A stretch of DNA of 62,337 nucleotides, counting the filler, from Globobulimina sp. (taxonomy: Eukaryota): NCBI GenBank assembly GCA_003354225.1. It is 22 parts of 22 records of this genome, joined end to end, with 100 filler letters (N's around TTAATTAATTAA, not from the genome) between each part and the next. Parts side by side here need not be neighbours in the genome. Positions count along the whole stretch, not along the records: positions 53,931 to 56,666 come from PIVH01005146.1; 21 more parts are not named here. The stretch is one strand, 5' to 3'. The notes beneath the pieces are model-generated. The model did not search any database. It worked only from the letters and a program-made list of their open reading frames with translations, and was not told the origin of the DNA. The translations under genes were made by a program, and so were the position numbers. Below are positions 2,741 through 59,922 of the stretch, in pieces. Within the stretch, counting starts at the first letter, position 1, and the number at the start of each line of letters is the position of its first letter.

Positions 2741-2840
2741 NNNNNNNNNNNNNNNNNNNNNNNNNNNNNNNNNNNNNNNNNNNNTTAATTAATTAANNNN
2801 NNNNNNNNNNNNNNNNNNNNNNNNNNNNNNNNNNNNNNNN
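2741..2840. other. Artificial contig-joining linker (44 N + TTAATTAATTAA + 44 N); first of 21 copies
   Basis: The same 100-bp block starts at 2741, 5581, 8421, 11261, 14101, 16940, 19779, 22618, 25457, 28296, 31135, 33974, 36812, 39650, 42487, 45323, 48159, 50995, 53831, 56667 and 59503. The core has stops in all six frames, and the pieces between linkers decrease in length from 2740 to 2735 bp. Confidence 0.99.
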
Positions 2841-5580: not shown

Positions 5581-5682
5581 NNNNNNNNNNNNNNNNNNNN
5601 NNNNNNNNNNNNNNNNNNNNNNNNTTAATTAATTAANNNNNNNNNNNNNNNNNNNNNNNNNNNNNNNNNNNNNNNNNNNNAT

Positions 5683-22105: not shown

Positions 22106-22717
22106 ATATGATGTTGTTTGTAAATAAATACATACAAATATGTGAGTGTTCTCTATTAGGCCTTTTGGCGTTTATGCACTGTTTCTAAAAACAAAGTTTT
22201 TGAGGCGGTACTAGTAACAATTATAAAAACGCTATTTCATACTATTGACGTTCATTATCACACAACTGAGAAAGCTATTAATATTTAATAAAACAACACA
22301 AAGCAAAAATGTTAACAAAAAAAATAGGTCATATAAAAAAATTAAAATGTTATAAAAACAACGAATCACGAATCTCAAAATTATTATTTGATGTAGGCAG
22401 TCATGATCACCCTCAATCTGTATTATTTTTATTTGATTTTAACCATTCACTTATTTTTGATGTATTGAAAAAATTTCCACTTTCAGTTCCTTGCTCCGAA
22501 CTACTATTTAATTCTTGTTCATCCTTTAATTTCTGCAATATTTGTGTACAATATTTATATTGTTGTTGAATATTTAACTTCAATTTTTTGTTATCAATCA
22601 CAATTCCCCTCTGCGATNNNNNNNNNNNNNNNNNNNNNNNNNNNNNNNNNNNNNNNNNNNNTTAATTAATTAANNNNNNNNNNNNNNNNNNNNNNNNNNN
22701 NNNNNNNNNNNNNNNNN

Positions 22718-25456
22718 TTCTGCTAGTGTTAAGAATTTGCATCCTACCGTTTTTTGTATAATTCTTTTTACTATACCTATCAGTCTCTCGTAAAACCCTC
22801 CCATCCAAGGTGCTAATTCAGTTATAAATTTCCATTGTATGCCTTCTGTACGAGTATATTCTTTTGTATTTAGCCAAGTTAACTCTAATGATTTATCTGC
22901 TGCTTTAAATTGCTTTGCGTTATCTGATATAATCATTTTTGGTCTACCTCGACGTCCAATAAATCGTTTTAGTGCTGCAATAAACTCTTTAGTAGTCATG
23001 TCTGTTACTATTTCTAAATGTATTGCCCTTGTAGATGCACATGTGAATAAACAGACCCAAATTTTTTCGCTGTTTTTATGCCCTTTTACTTCAATCGGTC
23101 CCCAGTAGTCTATCCCGATGTATTCGAATGGTTTACTAGGACTAACTCTGAATTTTGGCCAAGGGGGTGCAGACGGAGGTTGATAAGTATTGTTCCAATA
23201 TCTTTTACATGTTCGACAGTTTTTTATCAGAGATTGTATCGGTGCACGACCTTGTGGAATCCAATACTCGTACCTTATTTGAGCTAATGTTTGTTTTACT
23301 CCTGCATGCATCAAACGTTCGTGACATTGTTTTATGACCAAATTTGTGAAATGACTGTGTCTGGGTAACAATTTGGGATGTTTTGTATCTCTTGGTAAAT
23401 CTGTATTTTGTAATCTACCCTTGCATCTAATTAAACCTTTTTCGTCCACATAAAGACCTAAATCCTTGACAAGTTGACCTGTTTCCTTTTTACGTAGAGA
23501 TGCTTTTATGTGTGCGAATTCTGTATCTTGAGCGTAAACTTCCCATACTTGCTTTGCCCAAATTAAATCATTGTCGTATGACGGCATTTGATCATTTTTG
23601 TATGCGGGTAAACCTTTTTTAAATTTAAAATAAATCATCCGAGCATCTGCTGTTACTCTAAGTAATTTATTCAATGACGAAAACCTTGTTATATCCATAC
23701 CTAATGGTGCTTCGATGCGTTTTGTTAATGCCAACATTGCCGTACTTGTGTGTGTATATTTTTCAATTTCTTGTTTCTCTTGAAACCATTCAGACTCTAC
23801 CTTATTTAACCATTTTGGACCGTTCCACCACAAAAGTTTGTCGAATTTTTCTTGTGGTTTTGTTGGAATGTCTGCTGGATTGTCCTTTGATGGCACATAC
23901 CGAAACTCTAAGCCTTCGACCTTTTTTATTAATTTTACTCTATTAGTTTCGAATATGGGCAAAACCTTTTCTGTATTAATCCATGCTAAGACACATTTTG
24001 AGTCTGACCAAAGTACTGTACGTGCGATGTTACACCGTAACTGTTCTCTTACAAATTCAATACATTTTGCACCTAATACTGCTCCCATTAATTCTAATCT
24101 TGGTATTGAAACTTGTTTTCCTTTATTATTAATGGATGCTAAGCGATTTTTGGCATAAATAAGTGTCGTGCTTGTTTTGTCATCCGTTATACGAAGGTAG
24201 ACAGCTGCCGCATATACTTTTTCTGATGCATCCGTGAAACAATGTAACTCTACATATTGTAACGCTGTTATTGGTCCGACGATTCGTGGCAATTTAATTG
24301 TAGGTACAATGTTTAGTATGTCCTTTAATTTTCCCCATTGCAACTTTATGTCCGAAGGTAATGCATCATCCCACTGTAACTGTTTTTGCCAAACTGTTTG
24401 TAACAATAATTTGCCTGCTGCAGTGTATGGATTGAATAATCCTAAGGGATCAAATAATTTTGCAATTGCCTTCGTCAAATTTCGTTTTGTATGTACTTCG
24501 ATTTCGTTTAATTTTGGGTCCACTAATGATATGAGATCGTTTTTTAAGTCCCATTTTATTCCCAAAACCTTTACTATTTCTCCTTTAGCTCTATCCTTTT
24601 CGGGTAAACTTTCAATGAATGCTTGTGAGTTTGAACTCCATTCTCGTAAATTCATCGATGCATCTTGAAACATACTTTTAGATATTTTGTAAAGTCGTAA
24701 CGCACTTTCTAAATTCGGTTCACTAACTACTACATTGTCGACATATAAATTTCTTGCTAATTTTGTTGCAATGTCTGAGTGAATAGTATTAGTGTATTGT
24801 TGTAAATGATGTCTAATTGTAGCCATCAATAAGAACGGACTGCAAGTTACTCCAAATCCTACACTTGTAAATCGATATATGACTAAATTGCCTTTATCTG
24901 TAATTGGATTGTTTATGTCGCGTATCCAAAGCAGTCTATTTACATCTCTATCTGTCGATGTGATAAGAATTTGTAAAAATGCTTTTTCTATATCTGCTGT
25001 GATACCGATTTTTTCTTTGCGTAATCTTAGCCATAAACCGACTATGTCTTCAAGACCCACCGGACCTCGATATAAAAGATCGTTTAGACTATTATCGTCT
25101 GTTTTTGATTTACTCGATGCATCGTAAACTACCCGAATTTTCGTTGTTGCTCTATCTGGTTTAATAACACAATGATGCGGTATGTAATATACTTTGTCAC
25201 TTGTTTGCATATCAGGTGTTACTTCCTCTATAATACCCAATTTTAAATGTTCTTGGAACACTTGATCATATTTTTCAATCATTCCTGGGGTTTTTGTCAG
25301 ATTTTTAATTAAGGAACGCAAACGTGTAAGTGCAACTCCGTAATTATCGTTTAATGGTGCACTCCTATCTTTATATGGATAATGCACTTCATACCTTTTT
25401 GCTTCTTCATTAAATTTAACTGTATCATTAAAATGTTTTTGTGCGATAAAGTCGTC
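22718..25456 (-). mobile_element. pol: BEL/Pao LTR retrotransposon pol fragment (RT - RNase H - integrase), open across the whole contig
   Basis: YYIPHHCVIK...TTKIRVVYDAS, ADIEKAFLQI, FGVTCSPF, NLYVDN, KVLGIKWD, FDPLGL, ELHCFTDASEKVYAAAVY, SIPRLELMGA, WSDSK, NPADIPTK, zinc finger H..HAG..CRTC, and integrase GIDYWGP / ISDNAKQF / ERLIG. Confidence 0.95.
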
Positions 25457-28395: not shown

Positions 28396-31134
28396 CCATA
28401 ATATTTTGAGGTAAATTTAATTGATAGAGAGAATTTTTTATTTTATTTTTTCTAGTCATTGGAATGCCTAAACTTTTATGTAAATGCAATACAATAATTT
28501 CTAAAGCTTTGTATGTTTGTATATTATTTATCGTATTTATATTGGTCAATGTCGGTATTGGTGTGGATATTGCTTGAGAAGCATCAATATCCATACATTC
28601 AAATAGTGCTTTTGTGTGCCATAACAACGATTCTTTTTGTTTCTCATTAAATCTATTCAATATTTTCCCTTTTGATGAAATAATTAATTGCGACACACAA
28701 TGAATCCATTTATTATTATTATCAGTGTGCGTAAATAATTCGAATATATTATCTGTTTCTTGCTGAGCCCATTGCAATAATATTTCAACAATTTCAGTTT
28801 CACCCAATTCCATCGCAATATGAATGGGCATTTTATTTTGTTTATTTTTTGCATTTAACAATTTTGCGATACTTGTATTATTATTTCCGCTAAAACTTAT
28901 AAACATATTAACACATTGAATATCGCCTAGCAATGCAGCATAATGTAATATATTGTTATTGGAGGGAACATCTGTATTGTTATTAAAATCGTAATCATAA
29001 TAATATAAAATCTGTAAACATTTTAACAAATATGCCTTATTTTTTGCATTCTCATTGTTTGATCTGTATCGAACTAAGCCATGCGCCAAATATCCACCAT
29101 ATGATTGACAGTAATAATTAATTTCTATGTTTTCCGTTTCTAATAATAACTGTAAAATATCTGGATTTGGATTCAATGCGTTTGTTAAAAACAAGGCGTG
29201 CAATATTGAATGTAAATAATTTTGATCTGGCGTCCAATGATTATCTTTCATAACATATTGCGCAAAGAATTCAACCACACCATTTTTACCATTCTTTACA
29301 GCGTAATACAATGGTGTCTGGCCGTGCATATCTTTGATGTAAAAAGCATTGGTTGCTTCAAATAAGACATTCAATTCGCCATTTTCATTCCCAATTAATT
29401 CATTTAAATAATTTGTATCCGGATCAATATGCAATTTATGTGTATCCCGTTTGACACTTTGCAAAAATGCATCTAATAAATGTACAAAGGAGCGACATTT
29501 GTTTCTATTTCGATTGTTATTTTTATATAAGAAACAATACTCAAATATATTAATACCACTCCGATTGCAATCTGATTCTAATTGTTTTATAAAGTTATTT
29601 GTTTCTGACGTTTCCAAGAATTCTTTTCTTCTTCTTTCAAATATATTATTTCGATTTAAATACAATTCCGAGGTGAATTCAGAATGATTGTCCAATAAAT
29701 TTAAGAAAAATAACCATATTAACTCTTCATACTGATTCATTAAATCGTTTTTATTTTCTATTAAATCAATCGAGTACAATGCATCAATAATTGTATAAAA
29801 TACATGTTGTTTTAATTGCTGCTCCATTTGATTTAATATATTTAATCCCAAACAAAAATGAAACAATCTCCCCATATTTGTCACCATTTGTTTTTCTTTA
29901 TGTTTATCAACACAGTTTCCTCCATTTTCGATACTAAACTGAATCGATTCTTTAATTCTTTGAAATATAAAATGTAACGGATAATCGATTTGCGTTACAT
30001 CAAAATGAAATTTCTTATTTTTTTTACTCTCGCATTTCAAATCTGCAGTTTTATGGAAAAAGTCATAAAAATATATGCGATCTTTTTGTTTACGTCTACG
30101 TATTGCTAATTGTTGGAATACCCGTTTTTGTTTTTGCTTCGATTGGTATTGCATCGGAGATTTCAAATCTTTTAACAATTTATAAAAATCGTCAATATCC
30201 AAATAACCAGTTTTATTCACATCGAATCGCGCAAATAATCGCTGTACATCCATCAAACTATCAACCCGCGATATTATTACTTTGCACCCACTATTTTGCA
30301 ACAAATAGCCCAACATTTTACAACTTGACAAATCTAAATTGGATAAACTACCAATTGATATCCGTATTGTTTTCAATTTACAAGTTTCAGAGTGCAGTGC
30401 TTCTAACAACGGAGTGACGGAGGCTTTGTCAAATTTAAATCCACAAAAATTCACATCCTCCACATATCCTTTTTTGATGGCCGCTAAACGAGGAACAAAT
30501 GTAGCAATGGGCACTTCCGCTAATTGCAAAACACTCAAAGCATACTCACTAAATAACATACCATGTAACCTGGCATCACACCGAAATTCAATGAAATGGA
30601 CCACTAAGTTTAATAATGATACACCAATTGAGATATATAAGTCTTTTGCTGCAATACCAAATTGATTTTGCTCTTTCAAATTTCCATCTGCCGCTGAATT
30701 ATTATATGTTAATTGTATGAAAATATAGGTTTGTAACAGTGTTTGTGGCACAGACTCGGAAAAAATCTCAATTGCTTTCCGATACGTTTTGACTGCTTTT
30801 ATCTGTCTGTCAGCCGCCGCAATTAAGCCAGTTCCAAAGATAAATGCATAAATACCATGCAATACTTCATACATTACGACCCAATATATTTCATACAAGG
30901 CACAGCACAGCGCACCAAACGGTGGAAACATATATAATATCAATATTATGTTGAATAGATAGTTATTATTCGACTTCTTTTCAATATATGTTTGTATAAA
31001 TCTTAAACTCGCACTCCATGCTAACACAAACGGCAAAGCTATAAATAAACAAGATAGCATAAACCATATCTTCTCATTTCCTGTATACAGTTCCAAGGCA
31101 ATTATAATATCGGTATACATATCAAAATACATAA
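28396..31134 (-). CDS. XK-related (scramblase-like) membrane domain fused to an EF-hand and ankyrin repeats; both ends partial
   Basis: XK-like DMYTDIIIALELY..WFMLSCLFIALP and EIFSESVPQTLLQTYI..ISIGVSLL. EF-hand FARFDVNKTGYLDIDDF. Ankyrin repeats GQTPLYYAVKNG, NNILHYAALLG and KMPIHIAMELGETEIVEILL. Confidence 0.8.
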
Positions 31135-34161: not shown

Positions 34162-34998
34162 ACCGTCGTAAACGAAGTTACACGATCACTGCTGACGGAC
34201 ATCACTTAACGATAAACAGAGGACTAGGTCCGATCACTCTTGCAAGCATCACTGTGTTCACCTCTGTTTTTGATATCAGGAAGTTTGTCAAAAACGGTTT
34301 GTTTGACTATTATAAGATGCCCTTTGCATTTTTATCTGTAAACAGATAAGGCAGGGACGTCAACAAATTATTTCCACTGAAAATAAATAAAGGAGAAAGG
34401 TATAGCAGAAATAAAGTGTTGAAGGACCAGCTTATACTTATAATAGGGTGCGGGCGGGTGGGTTTCAAACAATTAAGGTCTAGAGAAGAAAGGTTTTGTT
34501 TCTGATGAGAACTGAAGTACGAAGTCAATCATCAAAAACACTTTCTTCGTGTTGACCGCAATAACCTAGGAAGTCTCAAGTGTTCGACTGCCGGCAATTA
34601 TAGCTACTTTCAAGCACTTGAGTTTCGAAGATAGATTGCAAGGAAGGAATATTTAATTAATTAATTTATTTTATATTAAATAAATAAATAAAACAATAGA
34701 AGAGGTTTGGTCAACGTTGTTCACGTTTGCAGGTAAAGTCAGCAGGATCCAAACCAAAGATATTGACAGCACATTAAATATTAGTTTAAAATAAACTAAT
34801 AAATAATTTAATTGGTTGACAAAATCTTCGACCACCGAAATCTTTGGATCCTTAGGATCTGACGATTACCCCAACGTGTCCTTAAATCTCTTATGTTTTT
34901 TCTTTTTGGATGTAGTGAATTTCTGTGCGAAACTAGTTGTCAGATTGTGAAAAACTTTAAGTCTGTAAAAAATTTAATTTAAACAATGGGTTTGTTTG

Positions 34999-38237: not shown

Positions 38238-39649
38238 ATGGTTAAATATAACATATTACAATATAATGTCAATGGGATAATCAGTCCCACAAAAATGTCA
38301 CAAGAAAATAAATGTAGAAAGATACATCAAATCATGATATCTAAACAAATTGACTGCCTCCTCCTTCAGGAATGGAGTGCCACCCTACGTTATGCAATAA
38401 ATCCAACAAATTCAAGTTATACGGACTCCAATAACCGAATACATTCACTTAAATTCCCTATAGAACTATTCCCAAAGTATAAAGTCCATTATACAGGAAC
38501 AGAAACAGCAATCCTGTATAGAGACTCACTGCTAGTCACCCCAATAAATTCTCCTCTAAATTACAACCATAATGATCGAACAAGAAATTGCCACATTTCC
38601 AGTATCATCATCCATAGTGGCGACCAAAACATAGGCATCCATTCCTTGTATAATTGTCCAAGAAACCCAAATATTGATCAACTGTTTAACTATCCAATGA
38701 CTGTAGATAAGAATATAATAGCTGGCGATTTTAATGTGCCACACATAATTTGGGGCAGCGATCGATCAACAGCTGAATCTGAAAATTTTGTTAATGGATT
38801 GGAATTCCTTGACATGCAAATTCTAAATATAACCAATCCATCCTATACTCATATACATAAATCGTACCATAAAAAATCCTCAATAGATCTTACATTGATA
38901 TCCAATAATTTGAAACATACTAAATGGAATATACTGCATTCTTTATATGACCCAAACTGCTCCGACCACGTTCCCATCGCTACCACCTTTGAAGTGGAGA
39001 ACGTTTTTGGTTTCAGCGAAACAAAAAAAACGTGGAATCTATCGAATTCAAGAAAATGGAGCAAATTTACAGAGGAATTGGCAATAAACATAAAAGAAAC
39101 ACAATTTGATCATAATCCAAATTTATACACAGAACAACTAACGTATCTCATAATTTACACGGCTGAGAAATCGATTGGATACAAACATTACTACCGTGGC
39201 CATAAACCATGGTGGAACAATAAAATAAAAAGATTAAAGAAACGCTGCAAACGGCTCCGTCGAAGAATACAGCGATTAAAGCGGAAAGCAAAACGTTTCT
39301 CCACTGATTTCCATATATATCCCAAATATAAACGATTAAAACATGAATTAAATGTGCTGCAATCAAAGAAATATAAATCAATCCAAAGAGCCAAACATGC
39401 CCATTATAAGAAAATAAATAAATATATCCAAACTTGCAAAGATTATGGTCGCCGTTTCTGGCGTACAATATCGAATAATAAAACAAATGACATAAACACA
39501 AATAATATCCCTCCATTGAACTATAAAAATAATAAAAATATAATTGACCCGGTAAAGCAGGCTAAAGCTCTCCAAGAGGCCATGACCAGACCACCAAAAC
39601 CAAAAACCAGTCCGTTGCATAATGAATGGCACAAATATGTAAATAAATT
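38238..39649 (+). CDS. LINE ORF2: apurinic/apyrimidinic-type endonuclease plus linker; RT lies beyond the contig end
   Basis: ILQYNVNGI, LLLQEW, IAGDFNVPH..WG, SSIDLTLIS, SDHVPI and KPWWN. Confidence 0.92.
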
Positions 39650-40014
39650 NNNNNNNNNNNNNNNNNNNNNNNNNNNNNNNNNNNNNNNNNNNNTTAATTA
39701 ATTAANNNNNNNNNNNNNNNNNNNNNNNNNNNNNNNNNNNNNNNNNNNNGAATTAGGAACCGGTCAGGCACTGAGTTATAAAGAGACGAAAAGGCATGAC
39801 CCCAAGTTTCGACTCTAGTTACTGTCAGTTAAAGGCGACAACGTGTATTTTGGCCAACGACGGTTGATGTTTGAACCAAAATACCTATCCGTAATTAATA
39901 TCCATTAGTATAAAATTAATTATTTAATATCAACAAAACCAATGGCCATTTTATAATGTGTGAAGGTTTTTAGTTTGAAGGTTTTTACAGTAAGATGTTT
40001 TCACTGAACTATCA

Positions 40015-51765: not shown

Positions 51766-53830
51766 TCAGTCAGTTGATATGTTATTGGCAATTTGTACCG
51801 ATATATGCGATTGCGTGTTATCAATGGTTTCATCATTTTGTAAGTCCATATATTTTGTTGTTGATCTTTTTAAAATAAGTAATGCGCAAAAATGCATTAA
51901 AACCAATAACAACAATAATGCAACAATCGGATATTCCAAATTATACTCATTATACTCTAATGTTTGTAAAACATTTTCCCCTTCAAATAAACAACCAGCA
52001 GCACCATCTCTTGACGGACATTGGAATTCTTCATTTTTAAATTCGTTGATACAATATGCCATATACGACCATCTTGTCACAGAAAAATAACTAATCCATG
52101 ATAACCAATCTGGCATTTTGGAAACATGCATAAAAAAGCCTGAAAATAGTATCATAATTCCAGCCAAATTTTGACCGATAAGAGACACAGCGCGAAGAGT
52201 CAGAGGTAAACCGCTGCACAAAAATCCTAAGCCAATTGCGGCAAAATTATTTAACATTGTAATCAATAAATAAACAGCAAAGGTCGAAATATCACTCTTT
52301 AAACCAACAATGTAATATAAAATTGCTGCCAACATCACTGGGTACACTAATTGAAAAAACATTGTCGATGCTAATGTTGTGATGTAATACATAATCAATG
52401 AATAGGATTTTGTCTGCATTTCTCTTCGAACAATCAATTTTTCAAGAAAAAATATTGGGATTACCTGAACTGTACCGCCTAAAATCTGCATCATAGAAAT
52501 ATAGCCAAATAAAAATTGTCTGTTAAATATGGAGCCATTTAACTCCGAATAAACAGCAGAACTAAGGAATGCGGTAACGAGTGTTGCTACAAACCGTGTT
52601 ATAAATGATCTTTTGCTTCGAACTATTTGCCGGAACGACCTAACTGATAAAATTGACAGTTGTTGAAATATTGAAACTTTTTCAAAATTACTTTTTTTAA
52701 AATTGGAGAATCTATTTGTATTTGTATTTGTATTTGTATTTGATTCAATTGCTTCTTTGATCAAAACTCTTTGATCAAACTCTTTGATCAATTCGCTAAT
52801 TTGTAATATTGATTCATTTCTGGCTTTCTCTGAACGGCTATCCACGGATATCACATCTAAGAAAAAATCAGCGGGATTGAAATAATTCGGACAAACAAAT
52901 CCTTTTTGTTTGAAATATTCCAATGCGACATCACCTGATTTTCCGTGGTACGCAGTGTGTCCGTTGTGTGATAGTAAGAAAATGGTATCAAATAAGTTAT
53001 AAATGGATGAGCGTGCCTGGTGTATGGATAATATCACAGTGCATCCGTTATTACATAATTTCTTTAATGTTTCCAGAACTTTTAAAGATTGAAAACTATC
53101 TAAACCAGACGTAGGCTCATCGAGTAAGATTAGCGACGGATTTCTAATTAATTCCATGCCTATGACCAGCCGTTTTTTCTCTCCGCCAGAGATACCGCGA
53201 GAAACGTCATCACCAATACGGGTATGAGATATGTCTAATAAATCCAACTCCGATAAAGTTTGTTGAACCAGTTGTTCCCTGTCGTTCTGTGTTGCAATTT
53301 CAGAATTAAATTTCGCCGCAGTCATTAATGTTTCAAAAACTGTTTGTTGACTATGCAACGCGTTGTGTTGTCGAACGATCCCAATTAAATTTCGAAATGA
53401 GCTTCTCCCCAAATTCTGTCTATCCGTGCCGTTTATGATAACGTTTCCCGTCAATTTACTGTTCTTATTTGCGATTACTGTGTTTGATAATATATTTAAT
53501 AGCGTTGTCTTACCTTTACAAAACAAATACACATTCAATATTTTTGGAAATTCACTTGCAAGATAAGACGAATTTGGATGGGAGATAAGATGTAAATATG
53601 TAAAAAAAAATATGTAAAAAAATAATTAATACCAGATCCACTCGGTCCCATAATAGCACATAATGTTCCTTCATCAACTTTGCCGCAAATGTCATTAAGT
53701 ATACATTTTCTCTCCTTTTTTACCACTACAGAATATGTGATATTTTTCCACGACAAATTAATTGGAATTCTGCTTTTTTTGGTACACGTCTTAGCCAAAA
53801 CGCTGCGATCTATGACTAACTTCATCATAC
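51766..53830 (-). CDS. ABCG: ABCG (white/BCRP-type) half transporter; intron 53514-53632, 5' end at or near the contig edge
   Basis: Walker A GPSGSG|KTT split by the intron, signature ISGGEKKR, Walker B LILLDEPTSGLD, H-loop SIHQ, NPADFFLD and a C-terminal six-TM domain. Confidence 0.95.
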
Positions 53831-53930: not shown

Positions 53931-56666
53931 TCAGCCAAAATTCCAAATGTTTCTAATAAGAAATCACGAATATACGCAATTGCAAATGTCAAATTAAAGC
54001 CTGCTTTGCCGGACTCTTCGCCCCCTACGATTCCCTTATTTTGTTTAATTAATTTATTTAGAATATTTTGTTGAGTTTTTATTTCATTTCTTGTTCCTTC
54101 ATAAACAATTGTCGCCGCACAAATATTATCCAAATTGAATCCTTTCCATTTGGTTAAATATAATTTTGATAAAAATGATTTGTAATTATGTGATTTGCTG
54201 CCACTTGTTTTCAGAGTTTGTGATAGTTTAAATTGTGTATTATCTACCAAGCGTAATGATGCTGGACGACAATTTGTAGCGATATTTTTTACCATTTTCA
54301 TCATATTTATGCCATCCCTCCAGGCGGGAAATACCACGGAATCATACGCTACGATATCAGGCAGTTTATGCAATCGAATGACAGCCGATATAATAATACC
54401 TAAACTCCCTTCAGATCCATAAAATGGAGCCAAATAATTTGTGCCCGCAGCGACCCGGCCATACAAACCCATATTGCGATTGAGTAAACCTAACGATGTT
54501 ATCACCTCAAAGTCGATCACAATGTCTTCAATATTGCCATATTTACTTCGTTTCATACCAGAGGCAAAGGTTGCTATCCATCCGCCTAATGTTGAAAACT
54601 CATAAGAGTCCGGATAATGACCAGAGGTAAAACCAAATGAATTCAATTCTTTCTCTAACTTTTTGCCAGTTATACCAGCCATAATATTCGCAGTCTGATT
54701 CTCTCGGTTGATCCAAATTACTTTATTCATTAAACTCATATCGACCGATATTATTCTCCTTTTTTCCACTTTTTTATTTGGACACCACAGGGCATGCGTT
54801 ACGTTGGTACCTCCTCCATACGGTATTATGCACAGACCATTGCCGAATCTGTGACAATTATTCACCAATGCAATCAATTCAGTTTTGTCCTGTGGATAGA
54901 CCACAATATCTGGGATGCGGAAATCTAGATTTTTAAGTCGCAAATGTAACATATCAGAGACTGTGTGACCGGTTCCATGCATATAACGGTTCGCTATATC
55001 TTTTGTTACATACTTTGAACCAAATAATTTATGCAAAAAAGTCATTAATTCGTCGTCATTATCATTATCATTAATATTAATATTGTTATTCAGACTGATA
55101 CAGACAGGGAAATAGCGTTTTTTTCTTAATAATGGAATCTTTGATAAATCCGATAAAAATGAGATTGATTTATCAAAGTATTTATCACTTATTTCGTATC
55201 TTGACCCTTTAAAGAATAATTTATCAGATTTTAAACAAAAATAACAATCTCTGTAACCCCAATATCCTAAATTCTCATCACCGACAGATATCCTTTGACT
55301 TACTAAGCCATCGGAATCATTTGTGTTAAATTTGAGTAATGCCATTGATTTGTTTAAGTAATTAAAAGATCGATACTCTGCGATAATGTATTTGATCAAA
55401 CTGATAAACTCTTTGTAATCCGCCTCATTCTCCGCATCATCGATATCCTCCGCCTCATCCTCATATTTCATGTCTGATTCCAATTCCATTATATTACCAT
55501 TTGTTAGCCAATATTTTGTATCAGAATCAAAATAATTGCAAATATAATGTGCAAATTGTAATGTTAACATATAAATTTCTTTATTATTTGTGGGTATATG
55601 GCTAATCGCCGTGGGGTGCACTTTACAGCCTTTCTTACTTAAAAAGCTTTCAACGTTCAATTTAACCGATTTGTTATTTATATAGGGATAAATATGATAT
55701 TTGGTAATATTTGTCATTTCCATTTGTTTTAATTGTACTTTGTTCACTAAATTATTAAAAAATTGTTTATTATAATTTTGTTTTCTGACTGGAATAATAT
55801 CACCAATTTCTATATTAATATCGCCCAAAAATACCTTATTTTTGATCACAACGTCATAAAACCAGCCAAACAATTTAATCACACTAAAATCGGTTTTTTC
55901 ACCATCTAATTCTTTATAAAACGAGTCTTGTTCCGGTACGCGTTCATAATTGATAGCAATTGGAACAATATTTAAGTCCATTTCTTGCGCCAATACAGAT
56001 AGAGCGCCATGATGTGGCTTTAAAAATTGTCGATTCCGCGAGCGGGACCCTTCAATGAATAATTGATACACGTTATTTTTATCTTTGTTTTGTTTAATTT
56101 TTTTGGATAAAAAGCCATTTTTTATGTTATTCGAGCCACTATCAATAAATATGGTGTTCATCATACTCATACACATGGCGATGAGGGGCGATTGCTTGAA
56201 CTTACTCGTTGCAAATGACAATGGCATGGATAGGCCAAACAGCTGGTATTTGACGCATATCTTACAAATCAGTAAAAAATCATAAAAAGAGCGATGTGTG
56301 GGCAATAGTACAATATTCTTTTTATTTGATAATTTCCTTAAATTATCCAATGACTTATGCCCAATAATGACTTTATTGCAGGTCTTGCTGAGAATATAAG
56401 TAAAACAGGTATTTGTAATCGAAATCATTAAATTAAAATCATATTTAAATAATGGTATGGAAGCGGTCAAATCATTGATTGGTATCTTCGCTAAGTCGCA
56501 GGAGCTCTGCGCTACGATGGTAACATACTTCTTTCCATCAAACGAAATATCCGGTGTTATACCATCAGATACTTGGAAGTTGGTAGAGGTAAAATGTGCA
56601 AACTGATAGATAACGCCACTACGAACCACTACATGTTCAACTTTCGGCGGGGCAAACATTTCATTC
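53931..56666 (-). CDS. AGPS: Fusion of a PlsB/GNPAT-type acyltransferase with alkyl-dihydroxyacetonephosphate synthase (AGPS); possible fatty acyl-CoA reductase tail at the N-terminus; both ends partial
   Basis: One uninterrupted frame. Acyltransferase motifs LLPTHRSFYDFL (HxxxxD), FIEGSRSR and IVPIAINYERVPE. AGPS motifs WGYRD, HGTGHT, RIPDIVVYP, IIPYGGGTNV, GHYPDSYEFSTLGGWIAT.ASGMKRSKYGNIED, GSEGSLGII, PASLRLVDNTQF and LTFAIAYIRDF. Confidence 0.92.
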
Positions 56667-57042: not shown

Positions 57043-57376
57043 TAAAATATTGTATATAGTATCAAAGTTCTTATTATTTTAATAACTTCTGGCTAATAAA
57101 CAAAAAGTTGTATATTATCACAATAATAATACGCAGTTACATCCAGATCGCTATTCGTTGGATTACAACTAATTAGCATTTTTGATTGTGCAATCACATG
57201 TGTTTTTCTTAAAATATTGTATATAGTATCAAAATTCTTATTATTTTAATAACTTCTGGTTAATAAACAAAAAGTTGTATATTATCACAATAATAATACA
57301 CAGTTACATCCAGATCGCTATTTGCTGGATTACAACTAATTATCATTTTTGGTTGTGCAATCGCATGTGTTTTTCT
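57043..57376. repeat. Tandem duplication with a period of 167 bp covering the 3' end and downstream region of the zinc-finger gene
   Basis: TAAAATATTGTATATAGTATCAAA...CATGTGTTTTTCT occurs at 57043 and 57210 with few mismatches. Confidence 0.9.
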
Positions 57377-57949: not shown

Positions 57950-59470
57950 CTGGCCTACTTTTAGATGGTGGTGTGGGTAGACCGGCGACGCTTACATCGT
58001 CATAGTAATACTCTATTAGCGTCATCATTAGCTGACCTACTTTTAGATAGGGGGTGAAATTGGTGTCGGCCGCCATTTATTCAGCGTCGGACATTGTTTA
58101 TTCAATGTCGTTACCCTAGCCCAAAGGGATAAGGTCCTACCTGAACATCAAGCGGTTACTGTAACCACCCTGTATCGAATTCAAGTGGTAATCGAAATTT
58201 GGCACACCGCCAAAAATATATCGTGGCTACCCTGTCATCGGAACACCCTCCGTTTCCATAGCAACCAGTGTCTATTGTATACCAATAATGTTGTGACATT
58301 ATCACCTCTTTTTGGGATGGGCGTCGTTTTTCAACAAATAAATTTTCCACGTTCGACAAATAAAATCATCTATTTTCGCGTCGTGCGTTGTTTATATCGC
58401 GCCCGGCACCGTTTTAATAGCGTCAGACACCACCCCGTGACCTATTTTTAGACGGCGCAAAAAATTATTCGCAAATAATCTTTATCAATATATACAGACA
58501 TATTGTGACGTCCTTGTTATAGAACGGACGTCGACAGTTCCCAGTAAAACCGTCACATTGTCCTTGCGACAAGAAGAGGGAGTGATTAGACTCGACCGAT
58601 ATCAGATTACTGGGATACATATAAGCAAAATAAAACTCATTAATATAGAGAGTCGCGAATTTTGAAACATAAACCGTACGGGTCACACTCAAATATATTA
58701 AAAATCTATAAAAATAAATATTTCTGCGTTTAACAAATAAATCGTTTCTTTTTCGCGTCGGGTGCCGTTTAAATCGTGTCGTCGACATTTAATAGGAGTC
58801 GCTTACCATAACTACAGACATTGGGCCCATTCACTGGCTGGCCTATTTTAGACCATACACACGCTATTGACAGTGTCATCATTAGCTGACCTACTTTTAG
58901 ATAGGGGTAAACTGACGACGCTCACGTCATCACAATAATACTCTATTGACGATAGATATACCAATAATCGATAATTAATAATTTATGTTTTAAAATAAAT
59001 ATCAAAATCGATAAAATAGGTGAAAAAACAATAAATATCTCGTTGGGCGTCGTTTATTCGGCGTCGGGCGCCGATTAAATCGCGTCCGATACCGTACCCC
59101 TTCGATCGGAGGTCTATACCCGAACATATATATCAAAAATAGCTGAAAAATCGACAAATATATCGTCGGGCGTCGTTTATTCGGCGTCGGGCGCCGTTTA
59201 TTTACTATCAGATACCGTACCCCGAAGGGGTAAGGTATAACACGTTGTAGCATAGTAAAAGGGCTTTTGGTTAGAATAAATCGTCGGGCGCCGTTTATTC
59301 GGCGCCGGGCGCCGATTAAATCGCGTTCGTTACAGTACCCCGAAGGGGTAAGGTCATACCTGCGCATCCTGGGCGCGAAAATTGAATTTTCCCACTTTTT
59401 TGATAGGTGGCGCGTCGATTAGATAATGATGCGTCGATTAGATAATGCATCACGCGTCGATTATAACCCC
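57950..59470. repeat. CpG-rich complex repeat region with ~120-bp units and dispersed partial copies
   Basis: CGTCGGGCG(T/C)CGTTTATTCGGCG(T/C)CGGGCGCCG at about 59041, 59164 and 59282, with degenerate copies near 58065, 58375 and 58753. CTGACCTACTTTTAGATAGGGG at about 58032 and 58886. Confidence 0.8.
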
Positions 59471-59922
59471 CCACGTTGTGGCATAGCAGTTGGACTCGAC
59501 GGNNNNNNNNNNNNNNNNNNNNNNNNNNNNNNNNNNNNNNNNNNNNTTAATTAATTAANNNNNNNNNNNNNNNNNNNNNNNNNNNNNNNNNNNNNNNNNN
59601 NNCCTGTGTGTTACTTTTGGATGTTTATTTGTTTTATTTTAAGGAAATTGAATGTTGGTCGTTGGGATGTTTGATGAGTTGGCAAATCTATAATATTAAT
59701 TAATTTATCTAAGTGAGTGTGAGGACTGAGTGTCCAAAATTAATTTATTTATCCGTTATTTTTCTTTTCCGTGAATGTTCTTTGTGATTTTAGCTTTGTG
59801 GTTTTTTTTTCTTTTTTGTGTTGTGTACACACCATTGCTAAACATTGTGTTTTTTCACATGTTTACGTTAAATTAATCTAATCCAATCTAACTTAAATGG
59901 AGTAAATATGAAATACACACAG

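Follow-up and report, generated by a model that had tools for sequence, protein, structure and literature searches.

Three enzymes start ether-lipid synthesis. Fatty acyl-CoA reductase (FAR) makes the fatty alcohol, GNPAT makes acyl-dihydroxyacetone phosphate (acyl-DHAP), and alkylglycerone-phosphate synthase (AGPS) swaps the acyl for an alkyl chain. In animals each is a protein of its own; several protists have two of them as a single fusion protein (FARAT). In mammals, the peroxisomal GNPAT and AGPS are separate proteins that form a complex. Here we describe a contig from Globobulimina sp. (GenBank assembly GCA_003354225.1, record PIVH01005146.1) in which one reading frame encodes both a GNPAT-type acyltransferase and AGPS. 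The contig occupies positions 53931–56666 of the window, which denotes the whole 62,337-base stretch of DNA that was analysed.

FARAT is described, in excerpts from two papers, as a bifunctional FAR and DHAP-acyltransferase of Tetrahymena thermophila and Dictyostelium discoideum (PMC7375469, PMC13012113), and AGPS is treated as a separate protein in excerpts from the Dictyostelium papers (PMC13256971, PMC7375469). The excerpted text of a 2026 PNAS survey (PMC13012113) calls FARAT widespread, states that ether-lipid enzymes rarely co-occur in Diaphoretickes, ciliates excepted, describes FAR, GNPAT and AGPS as 'patchy' across SAR (stramenopiles, alveolates and Rhizaria), and shows a FARAT tree in which Diaphoretickes are represented by ciliates alone. 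The same excerpts report a Myxococcus xanthus operon, MXAN_1676-1675-1674, that encodes AGPS, a FAR-GNPAT fusion and the product of a further gene.

The protein family to which the contig belongs resembles FARAT in that a single polypeptide carries FAR ahead of a GNPAT-type acyltransferase, as seen in P0260 of Nonionella stella, the closest full-length relative, and in 31 members of the family, and in its presumed role of supplying both AGPS substrates. The FAR part lies outside the window and is seen in relatives. In contrast to FARAT, AGPS is covalently attached at the C-terminus, whereas it is separate in FARAT organisms according to the excerpts above; the diatom proteins have additional ACBP and DegT-like domains at the N-terminus; and no C-terminus resembling a type 1 peroxisomal targeting signal (PTS1) was found among 11 relatives. 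The M. xanthus operon, as excerpted, likewise brings the same three activities together genetically with FAR and acyltransferase fused, but its AGPS is an adjacent separate gene, whereas here AGPS is in frame and downstream of the acyltransferase. The mammalian GNPAT and AGPS belong to the same enzyme families and catalyze the same two consecutive reactions that are predicted here, and the AGPS of the window is ~41–44% identical to nematode AGPS; the link is covalent here, through an acidic linker, rather than a non-covalent complex. Database proteins of N. stella, Thalassiosira profunda, Nitzschia inconspicua, Durusdinium trenchii and Effrenium voratum show the same FAR-acyltransferase-AGPS order, from which the window differs in containing the acyltransferase and three quarters of AGPS only.

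A full-text literature search, from which the original TtFARAT paper and Datasets S2–S5 of PMC13012113 were outside, returned no description of an acyltransferase-AGPS or FAR-acyltransferase-AGPS fusion. The initial annotation of this DNA, made from the sequence alone, had considered the architecture uncharacterised, and on that point it agrees with the search; the architecture is nevertheless present in databases, in 50 of 275 homologues, several of which carry the automatic UniRef name 'alkylglycerone-phosphate synthase'. The architecture adds AGPS to the known FARAT fusion; it is visible in databases and apparently uncharacterised.

Reading frame, domains and junction

The contig contains 911 codons without a stop on the minus strand (Table 1), which bears out the single open frame of more than 900 residues in the initial annotation, with the strand corrected. 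A 911-codon open frame has a chance of ~2e-33 at the composition of the contig, and the longest open run in the remaining five frames is 78 codons. The frame runs off the contig at either end, and the start and stop of the gene are outside the window. The earliest in-frame ATG, at 56659, is the third codon of the frame, and the final two bases ahead of the spacer begin another codon.

A Pfam search identified Acyltransferase (PF01553, E 8e-15), FAD_binding_4 (PF01565, E 1e-27) and FAD-oxidase_C (PF02913, E 2e-4, profile positions 6–88 of 248, corresponding to the first third), in the order that had been predicted. The AGPS part (residues 468–907) aligns to residues 95–522 of the 658 residues of guinea-pig AGPS (PDB code 4bby) with an E value of 1.7e-82. 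Dictyostelium AGPS (2uuu) matches the frame at 1e-62 and D-lactate dehydrogenase only at 5e-20. The two-domain FAD-linked oxidase fold of AGPS is present, and AGPS scores above D-lactate dehydrogenase in both sequence and Foldseek comparisons, the best Foldseek matches being AGPS structures (E 1e-33, 32–35% identity; LDHD 3e-18). The Foldseek matches listed comprise AGPS-type and related flavoenzymes only, with nothing for the acyltransferase. The FAD-linked AGPS domain recognized in the initial annotation, including GHYPDSYEFSTLGGWIAT, is thus real, with the correction that it is cut off by the contig end: about three quarters lie in the contig, and ~139 C-terminal residues of P0260 fall beyond it. 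The acidic linker was also correctly placed between the two modules, at residues ~397–420; 12 of its 24 residues are missing in P0260.

The acyltransferase is closer to GPAT1/PlsB-type than to PlsC/AGPAT-type chains, as judged by profile scores. A profile of 13 family members matched solved structures of GPAT chains at 1.2e-25 and 3.3e-24, versus 5.8e-7 for a PlsC-type lysophosphatidic acid acyltransferase; the same profile matched AGPS at 2e-204 and fatty acyl-CoA reductase at 7.5e-23. With the single window sequence, the best acyltransferase relatives were also GPAT chains, at 2.4e-6 and 0.016, the latter being human GPAT1, and the acyltransferase is thus very divergent from that of animals. 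There was no GNPAT structure among the solved-structure matches of the acyltransferase part. The GPAT-chain match of the family profile reaches past the Pfam acyltransferase domain, and block IV extends slightly beyond its boundary.

Lewin et al. in 1999 reportedly defined block III as FxEGxRSR and block IV as (V/I)PxxIxYE. The residues H124, R125 and D129 are invariant across the 13 aligned members, leaving the HX4D dyad of block I intact, and F203, E205, G206, R208, S209, R210, P235, Y240 and E241 of blocks III and IV are invariant as well. The consensus of block II is GxxFI(R/x)R, in which the arginine(s) bind phosphate in PlsB/GPAT. Therefore, HRSFYD, FIEGSRSR and IVPIAINYE are present as had been noted, although the motif set is not complete as then supposed, since block II is divergent in this lineage (see below). 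In the AGPS domain, R805 (ASLRLVDN) lies opposite R419 of guinea-pig AGPS (ASIRLMDN), which we take to be the active-site arginine (PDB entry 4bc7 is titled as the Arg419His mutant). The C-terminal catalytic elements of AGPS are presumably the HHH loop and a tyrosine (guinea-pig Y578; entry 4bca is titled as the Tyr578Phe mutant). SHHHG is found in P0260 and in nine of the ten other aligned members that cover this region, and P0123 reads THSHHHG.

An AlphaFold2 model of the 911 residues, built with 56 aligned sequences, has a predicted local distance difference test score (pLDDT) of 78.6 and a predicted template modelling score (pTM) of 0.57. The linkers are of low confidence, with pLDDT below 50 for residues 1–36, 55–75, 398–409 and 436–455, and residues 239–396 are confidently modelled (pLDDT mostly 80–95). 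Given this pTM and the low-confidence linkers, the model lends no structural support to a channel.

The junction between the two modules was examined in public sequencing runs. Part or all of the stretch is contained in eight of the ten listed runs, which come from four studies, in all cases in the form of contigs, and no RNA run is listed among the runs that contain it. One run per study was compared in detail. In the probable source run, where word depth is ~3–6, a 1700-nt contig spans 54606–56297 and so runs from block I of the acyltransferase through blocks III and IV and the linker into the beginning of AGPS. Single contigs also bridge the acidic linker in two runs from studies other than the probable source (53937–56005 in run X6 and 55203–55763 in run X8), and overlapping contigs of run X5 tile the region, such that contigs from three further studies together tile the whole stretch, with the linker bridged by a single contig in two of them. 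For none of the four compared runs was a joint reported, whether as a skip, an inversion or an intron-like gap. Furthermore, the proteins P0136 (Logan, 384 aa, 52%) and P0003 (ENA, 794 aa, 43%) independently cross the junction. As the initial annotation had proposed, one frame links acyltransferase and AGPS covalently, and the junction is not an assembly artefact; the initial annotation had called for read mapping across the linker, and contigs of X6, X8 and the probable source run span it.

The X6 and X8 contigs are ~97% identical to the window (~3% difference). Third codon positions hold 35 of the 40 listed differences (p 2e-12; there are 62 further differences). The sole two indels of these contigs are in-frame 6-nt deletions, at 55070 in an N/D-rich low-complexity stretch and at 55439 in the acidic linker. 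Because the differences concentrate at third codon positions and the indels are in frame, the gene is under purifying selection. A pseudogene was considered and rejected, since the 911-codon frame is intact and the differences favour third positions.

Relatives, distribution and competing explanations

P0260 (EukProt EP01083 P076999) contains 1703 residues and is collinear with the window frame across all 911 residues. It consists of FAR (PF07993, residues 358–612), acyltransferase (790–918) and AGPS (1245–1693) domains, preceded by ~340 N-terminal residues with a hydrophobic stretch at ~298–325. Contigs of X5 and X6 extend 2384 and 2626 nt, respectively, past 56666 in the upstream direction. 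At the other end, sequence past 53937 in X6 and X8 encodes the AGPS residues that come next, in agreement with P0260; a contig of X6 extends 399 nt past this position, and its first 30 letters read as AGPS. Since P0260 has FAR directly upstream, the frame is open there, and the X5 and X6 contigs continue, the piece in the window is probably the middle of a FAR-acyltransferase-AGPS protein, i.e. FARAT with AGPS appended, and we infer that a FAR domain lies upstream in the source organism itself. The view of the initial annotation that this is a two-enzyme fusion distinct from FARAT, with FAR separate, gives way to this reading.

In total, 275 homologues (matches to the window protein and their cluster members, including some near-duplicates) were classified by local phmmer searches with parts of P0260. 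Acyltransferase and AGPS occur together in 50 of them, 31 of which also have FAR, and the domain order of the fused proteins is invariably FAR, acyltransferase, AGPS. Four homologues have FAR and acyltransferase only, and 220 have AGPS and no detectable acyltransferase. The fusion members include the diatoms T. profunda (KAL9182467.1, 2461 aa), T. exigua, Stephanodiscus triporus, Chaetoceros debilis (an MMETSP transcript, 2479 aa) and N. inconspicua (KAG7374222.1, 2294 aa, named 'FAD binding oxidase'), and the dinoflagellates D. trenchii (P0026, 1449 aa), E. voratum (CAJ1452663.1, 1811 aa) and Gymnodinium smaydae (a Trinity open reading frame). Records named as MMETSP or Trinity assemblies, which we take to be RNA-based, carry the fusion as a single open reading frame. 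The middle region is shorter in the foraminiferal clade than in diatom and dinoflagellate members.

Pfam scans bear out the domain architectures obtained with phmmer. They also identify extra N-terminal ACBP (PF00887) and DegT/DnrJ/EryC1-like aminotransferase-fold (PF01041) domains ahead of FAR in diatom members. These domains are seen in P0124, P0271, P0126, P0133 and P0272–P0275, and the aligned sequences show a hydrophobic segment between these domains and FAR. With the acyltransferase half alone as query, a word-indexed search found four proteins, all with the arrangement ACBP-DegT-FAR-acyltransferase. The records P0272–P0275 (~1450 aa) end just past the acyltransferase, and a class of 800–900-aa records (for example P0098, P0024 and P0105) begins just past it and consists of AGPS with an N-terminal extension of 230–300 residues. 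Such split records represent either a truly split diatom form of the gene or gene-calling breaks at an intron.

An unrooted AGPS tree was calculated from 71 sequences, comprising 36 fused proteins and 35 chosen from 131 complete unfused ones, with no named ciliate, amoebozoan or discoban sequence among the 71. One branch, with support of 92/83 and recovered in 89% of 200 bootstrap trees, separates the fused proteins and 11 shorter records that nest among them from the remaining sequences. The 11 shorter records, which were counted into the family after a quick tree had been seen, are probably truncated gene models. A fusion that arose once would be compatible with this topology. The closest partner of the window sequence in the tree is N. 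stella (100/98); two metagenome proteins join the pair next (100/100), and this group stands apart from the diatom and dinoflagellate clade. When metagenome contigs were scanned with the single protein, none of the 592 pattern matches was confirmed, and the ESM Atlas gave no usable match to the fusion protein. The family alignment, run against viral contigs, produced two pattern matches, neither confirmed, which argues against a giant-virus origin within the scanned viral collection.

The nearest relatives of the fusion gene come from the EukProt sets of Bolivina argentea and N. stella (65–74% identical), and these sets also provide the best matches (49–57% identity) to an ABCG transporter encoded on a neighbouring contig of the window. 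Identity to the diatom and dinoflagellate members is 27–35%. The gene is most likely a nuclear gene of a foraminifer-like protist. Both EukProt sets are presumably transcriptomes of field-collected cells, and P0249, labelled Bolivina, is clustered at 90% with the protein of N. stella; cross-contamination between the two sets is therefore possible.

With fairly high confidence, we regard the contig as an intron-free internal piece of a nuclear, foraminifer-like gene for a multidomain enzyme that initiates ether-lipid synthesis. Several observations weigh against this enzyme being a complete and canonical FAR-acyltransferase-AGPS protein. A tblastn search with the N. stella protein matched only the fusion contig and found no FAR sequence in the window. 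The Bolivina argentea fragment P0130, 73% identical to residues 1–262, starts with a Met one residue before the first residue of the window frame (M-N-E-I-F-A-P, aligned to N-E-M-F-A-P), and this Met could mark a shorter, genuine acyltransferase-AGPS product. The structure model gives no confident relative placement of the acyltransferase and AGPS modules, and the catalytic C-terminal part of AGPS lies beyond the contig, which ends at the equivalent of guinea-pig residue 522. None of the C-termini examined in the 11 relatives has a PTS1 of the SKL type, so a peroxisomal location is unsupported. Lastly, block II departs from its consensus (TIFIDSG in the window, TIFIDTG in P0260 and TVFIDSR in P0130), and with such a divergent foraminiferal block II, substrate binding may differ. 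It could be argued from the P0130 start that the gene encodes acyltransferase and AGPS only, with its start Met at the contig edge and FAR encoded elsewhere; the base preceding the frame is a G, which fits the end of an ATG, and 19 of the 50 acyltransferase-AGPS proteins have no FAR match. However, the equivalent residue is internal in N. stella, where 687 residues including FAR lie ahead of it, P0130 is itself a fragment of 260 residues, and the FAR-less records include many that are visibly truncated or that sit on short contigs. Moreover, contigs from two other studies extend at least 2.4 kb upstream with no break at the contig end, and residues 1–75 fold poorly alone, as an inter-domain segment would. 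We consider this two-enzyme gene unlikely. The block II sequences could also mean that the foraminiferal acyltransferase module is not a canonical DHAP acyltransferase and either uses another acceptor or serves AGPS as a scaffold or acyl-CoA-binding module, since all three foraminiferal sequences are without both arginines and the glycine, whereas the other ten aligned members (diatom, dinoflagellate and others) retain an AFFxxRG-like motif. Nevertheless, the HX4D dyad is preserved, as are blocks III and IV, no segment is better conserved relative to N. stella than the Pfam acyltransferase domain (85%, followed by FAD_binding_4 with 75%), and substitutions sit at third codon positions, which makes a non-canonical module improbable.

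The fragmentation of the assembly (~2.7-kb contigs at the low word depth given above) could suggest that the fusion is a chimera of two genes, and, as foraminifera eat diatoms and diatoms share the architecture, the contig could be a contaminant from prey. The chimera is contradicted by the contigs of the three further studies, by the orthologue that is collinear across the entire frame, and by P0136 and P0003. Contamination by diatom prey is unlikely because the AGPS tree places the window sequence with N. stella, well apart from diatoms; the low identity to diatom members and the GC content of the contig (0.337), inside the 0.30–0.39 range of the remaining contigs of the window, also speak against it. 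Taken together, a chimeric or contaminant origin is highly improbable.

Window layout and neighbouring contigs

The window consists of 22 contigs of 2735–2740 bp, ordered by length and separated by 100-nt spacers that introduce a stop in all six frames. The 12-mer TTAATTAATTAA within the spacers has 22 matches in the window, versus 0.09 expected; 21 of these are true spacers, and the match at 34653 lies inside a contig with no spacer. Positions 53931–56666 coincide with one whole 2736-bp contig with a spacer on either side. Since the window joins unrelated contigs, arguments from synteny inside it are invalid. The features of the fusion contig are summarized in Table 1.

Table 1. Coordinates of the fusion gene features and assembly spacers in the window
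Feature	Position	Strand	Residues	Basis or remark
Whole 911-codon frame, predicted internal fragment of a multidomain ether-lipid synthase gene	53932–56665	-	1–911	65% identity to P0260 residues 688–1564
Segment between FAR and acyltransferase in the orthologue	56345–56665	-	1–107	Aligns to P0260 688–790; 54% identity
GPAT/GNPAT-type acyltransferase domain	55952–56344	-	108–238	PF01553; 85% identical to N. stella
Block I, HRSFYD	56279–56296	-	124–129	
Block III, FIEGSRSR	56036–56059	-	203–210	
Block IV, IVPIAINYE	55943–55969	-	233–241	
Mainly helical region, part of the acyltransferase module	55478–55951	-	239–396	53% identity to N. stella
Acidic linker, length variable	55406–55477	-	397–420	D/E 12 of 24; 17% identity to N. 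stella
Helix (~411–443), then second low-confidence connector	55265–55405	-	421–467	Structure model
AGPS domain, cut by contig end	53933–55264	-	468–911	AGPS matches, Pfam
FAD_binding_4, inside AGPS	54488–54913	-	585–726	PF01565
GHYPDSYEFSTLGGWIAT, inside AGPS	54569–54622	-	682–699	
FAD-oxidase_C (partial), inside AGPS	54044–54349	-	773–874	PF02913
Assembly spacer, non-biological, contig boundary	53831–53930	.		N44-TTAATTAATTAA-N44
Assembly spacer, non-biological, contig boundary	56667–56766	.		N44-TTAATTAATTAA-N44
Spacers of the whole window	2741–2840, 5581–5680 ... 59503–59602			N44-TTAATTAATTAA-N44

Several of the other contigs also contain recognizable features. The ABCG-type half transporter gene mentioned above (51766–53828, minus strand) has an intron-like, AT-rich interruption of ~110 nt near 53540–53625. 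A Pao/BEL-type long terminal repeat (LTR) retrotransposon polyprotein (Peptidase_A17, RVT_1 and integrase) and a non-LTR endonuclease-reverse transcriptase open reading frame are found on two separate contigs (22670–25387, minus strand, and 38238–39701, plus strand, respectively). Pao/BEL elements are mainly metazoan, and their presence in a foraminifer-like assembly may merit attention. A long open reading frame at 28396–31132 (minus strand) encodes ankyrin repeats together with an XK-related (scramblase-like) domain at the N-terminus. On another contig, a 167-nt unit in tandem duplication (57043–57376, 95% identical) overlaps a small zinc-finger-like open reading frame at its 3' end, and a GC-rich 88-nt repeat is present in three copies at 59013–59341.

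Proposed function and significance

The catalytic activities, DHAP specificity, channelling and cellular location of the enzyme are inferred. The FAR domain, upstream of the window, would reduce acyl-CoA to a fatty alcohol, the GNPAT-type acyltransferase would convert DHAP to 1-acyl-DHAP, and the AGPS flavoenzyme domain would exchange the acyl group of 1-acyl-DHAP for the fatty alcohol to give 1-O-alkyl-DHAP. The full protein would thus make alkyl-DHAP from acyl-CoA, NADPH and DHAP, with its modules tethered by flexible linkers. Fusion of the modules would fix their ratio at 1:1:1 and would hold two hydrophobic intermediates beside the enzyme that consumes them. In this respect, the protein may be a covalent counterpart of both the mammalian peroxisomal GNPAT-AGPS complex and the ciliate and Dictyostelium arrangement of FARAT plus AGPS.

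More tentatively, foraminifera, diatoms and dinoflagellates may share an ether-lipid 'megasynthase' of FAR, GNPAT-type acyltransferase and AGPS, to which diatoms add ACBP, an aminotransferase-like domain and a hydrophobic segment, such that the whole committed pathway would reside on a single, possibly membrane-anchored, non-peroxisomal protein. A natural fusion that includes AGPS offers a 'Rosetta stone' for how GNPAT and AGPS are functionally coupled, and would allow channelling of acyl-DHAP and fatty alcohol to be tested in a single recombinant protein. It also alters the evolutionary picture, since the complete fused set occurs in named diatoms, dinoflagellates and foraminifera, in contrast to the FARAT of ciliates only in the excerpted main text of PMC13012113. 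If the megasynthase is real, FARAT-type synthesis would have been consolidated by further fusion in SAR outside ciliates rather than lost, as those excerpts suggest, and ecologically dominant protists would make ether lipids by a channelled route. The lack of obvious peroxisomal signals in the relatives raises the question of where in the cell the pathway operates. The fusion thus points to unexplored ether-lipid biology in marine primary producers, coral symbionts and sediment foraminifera.

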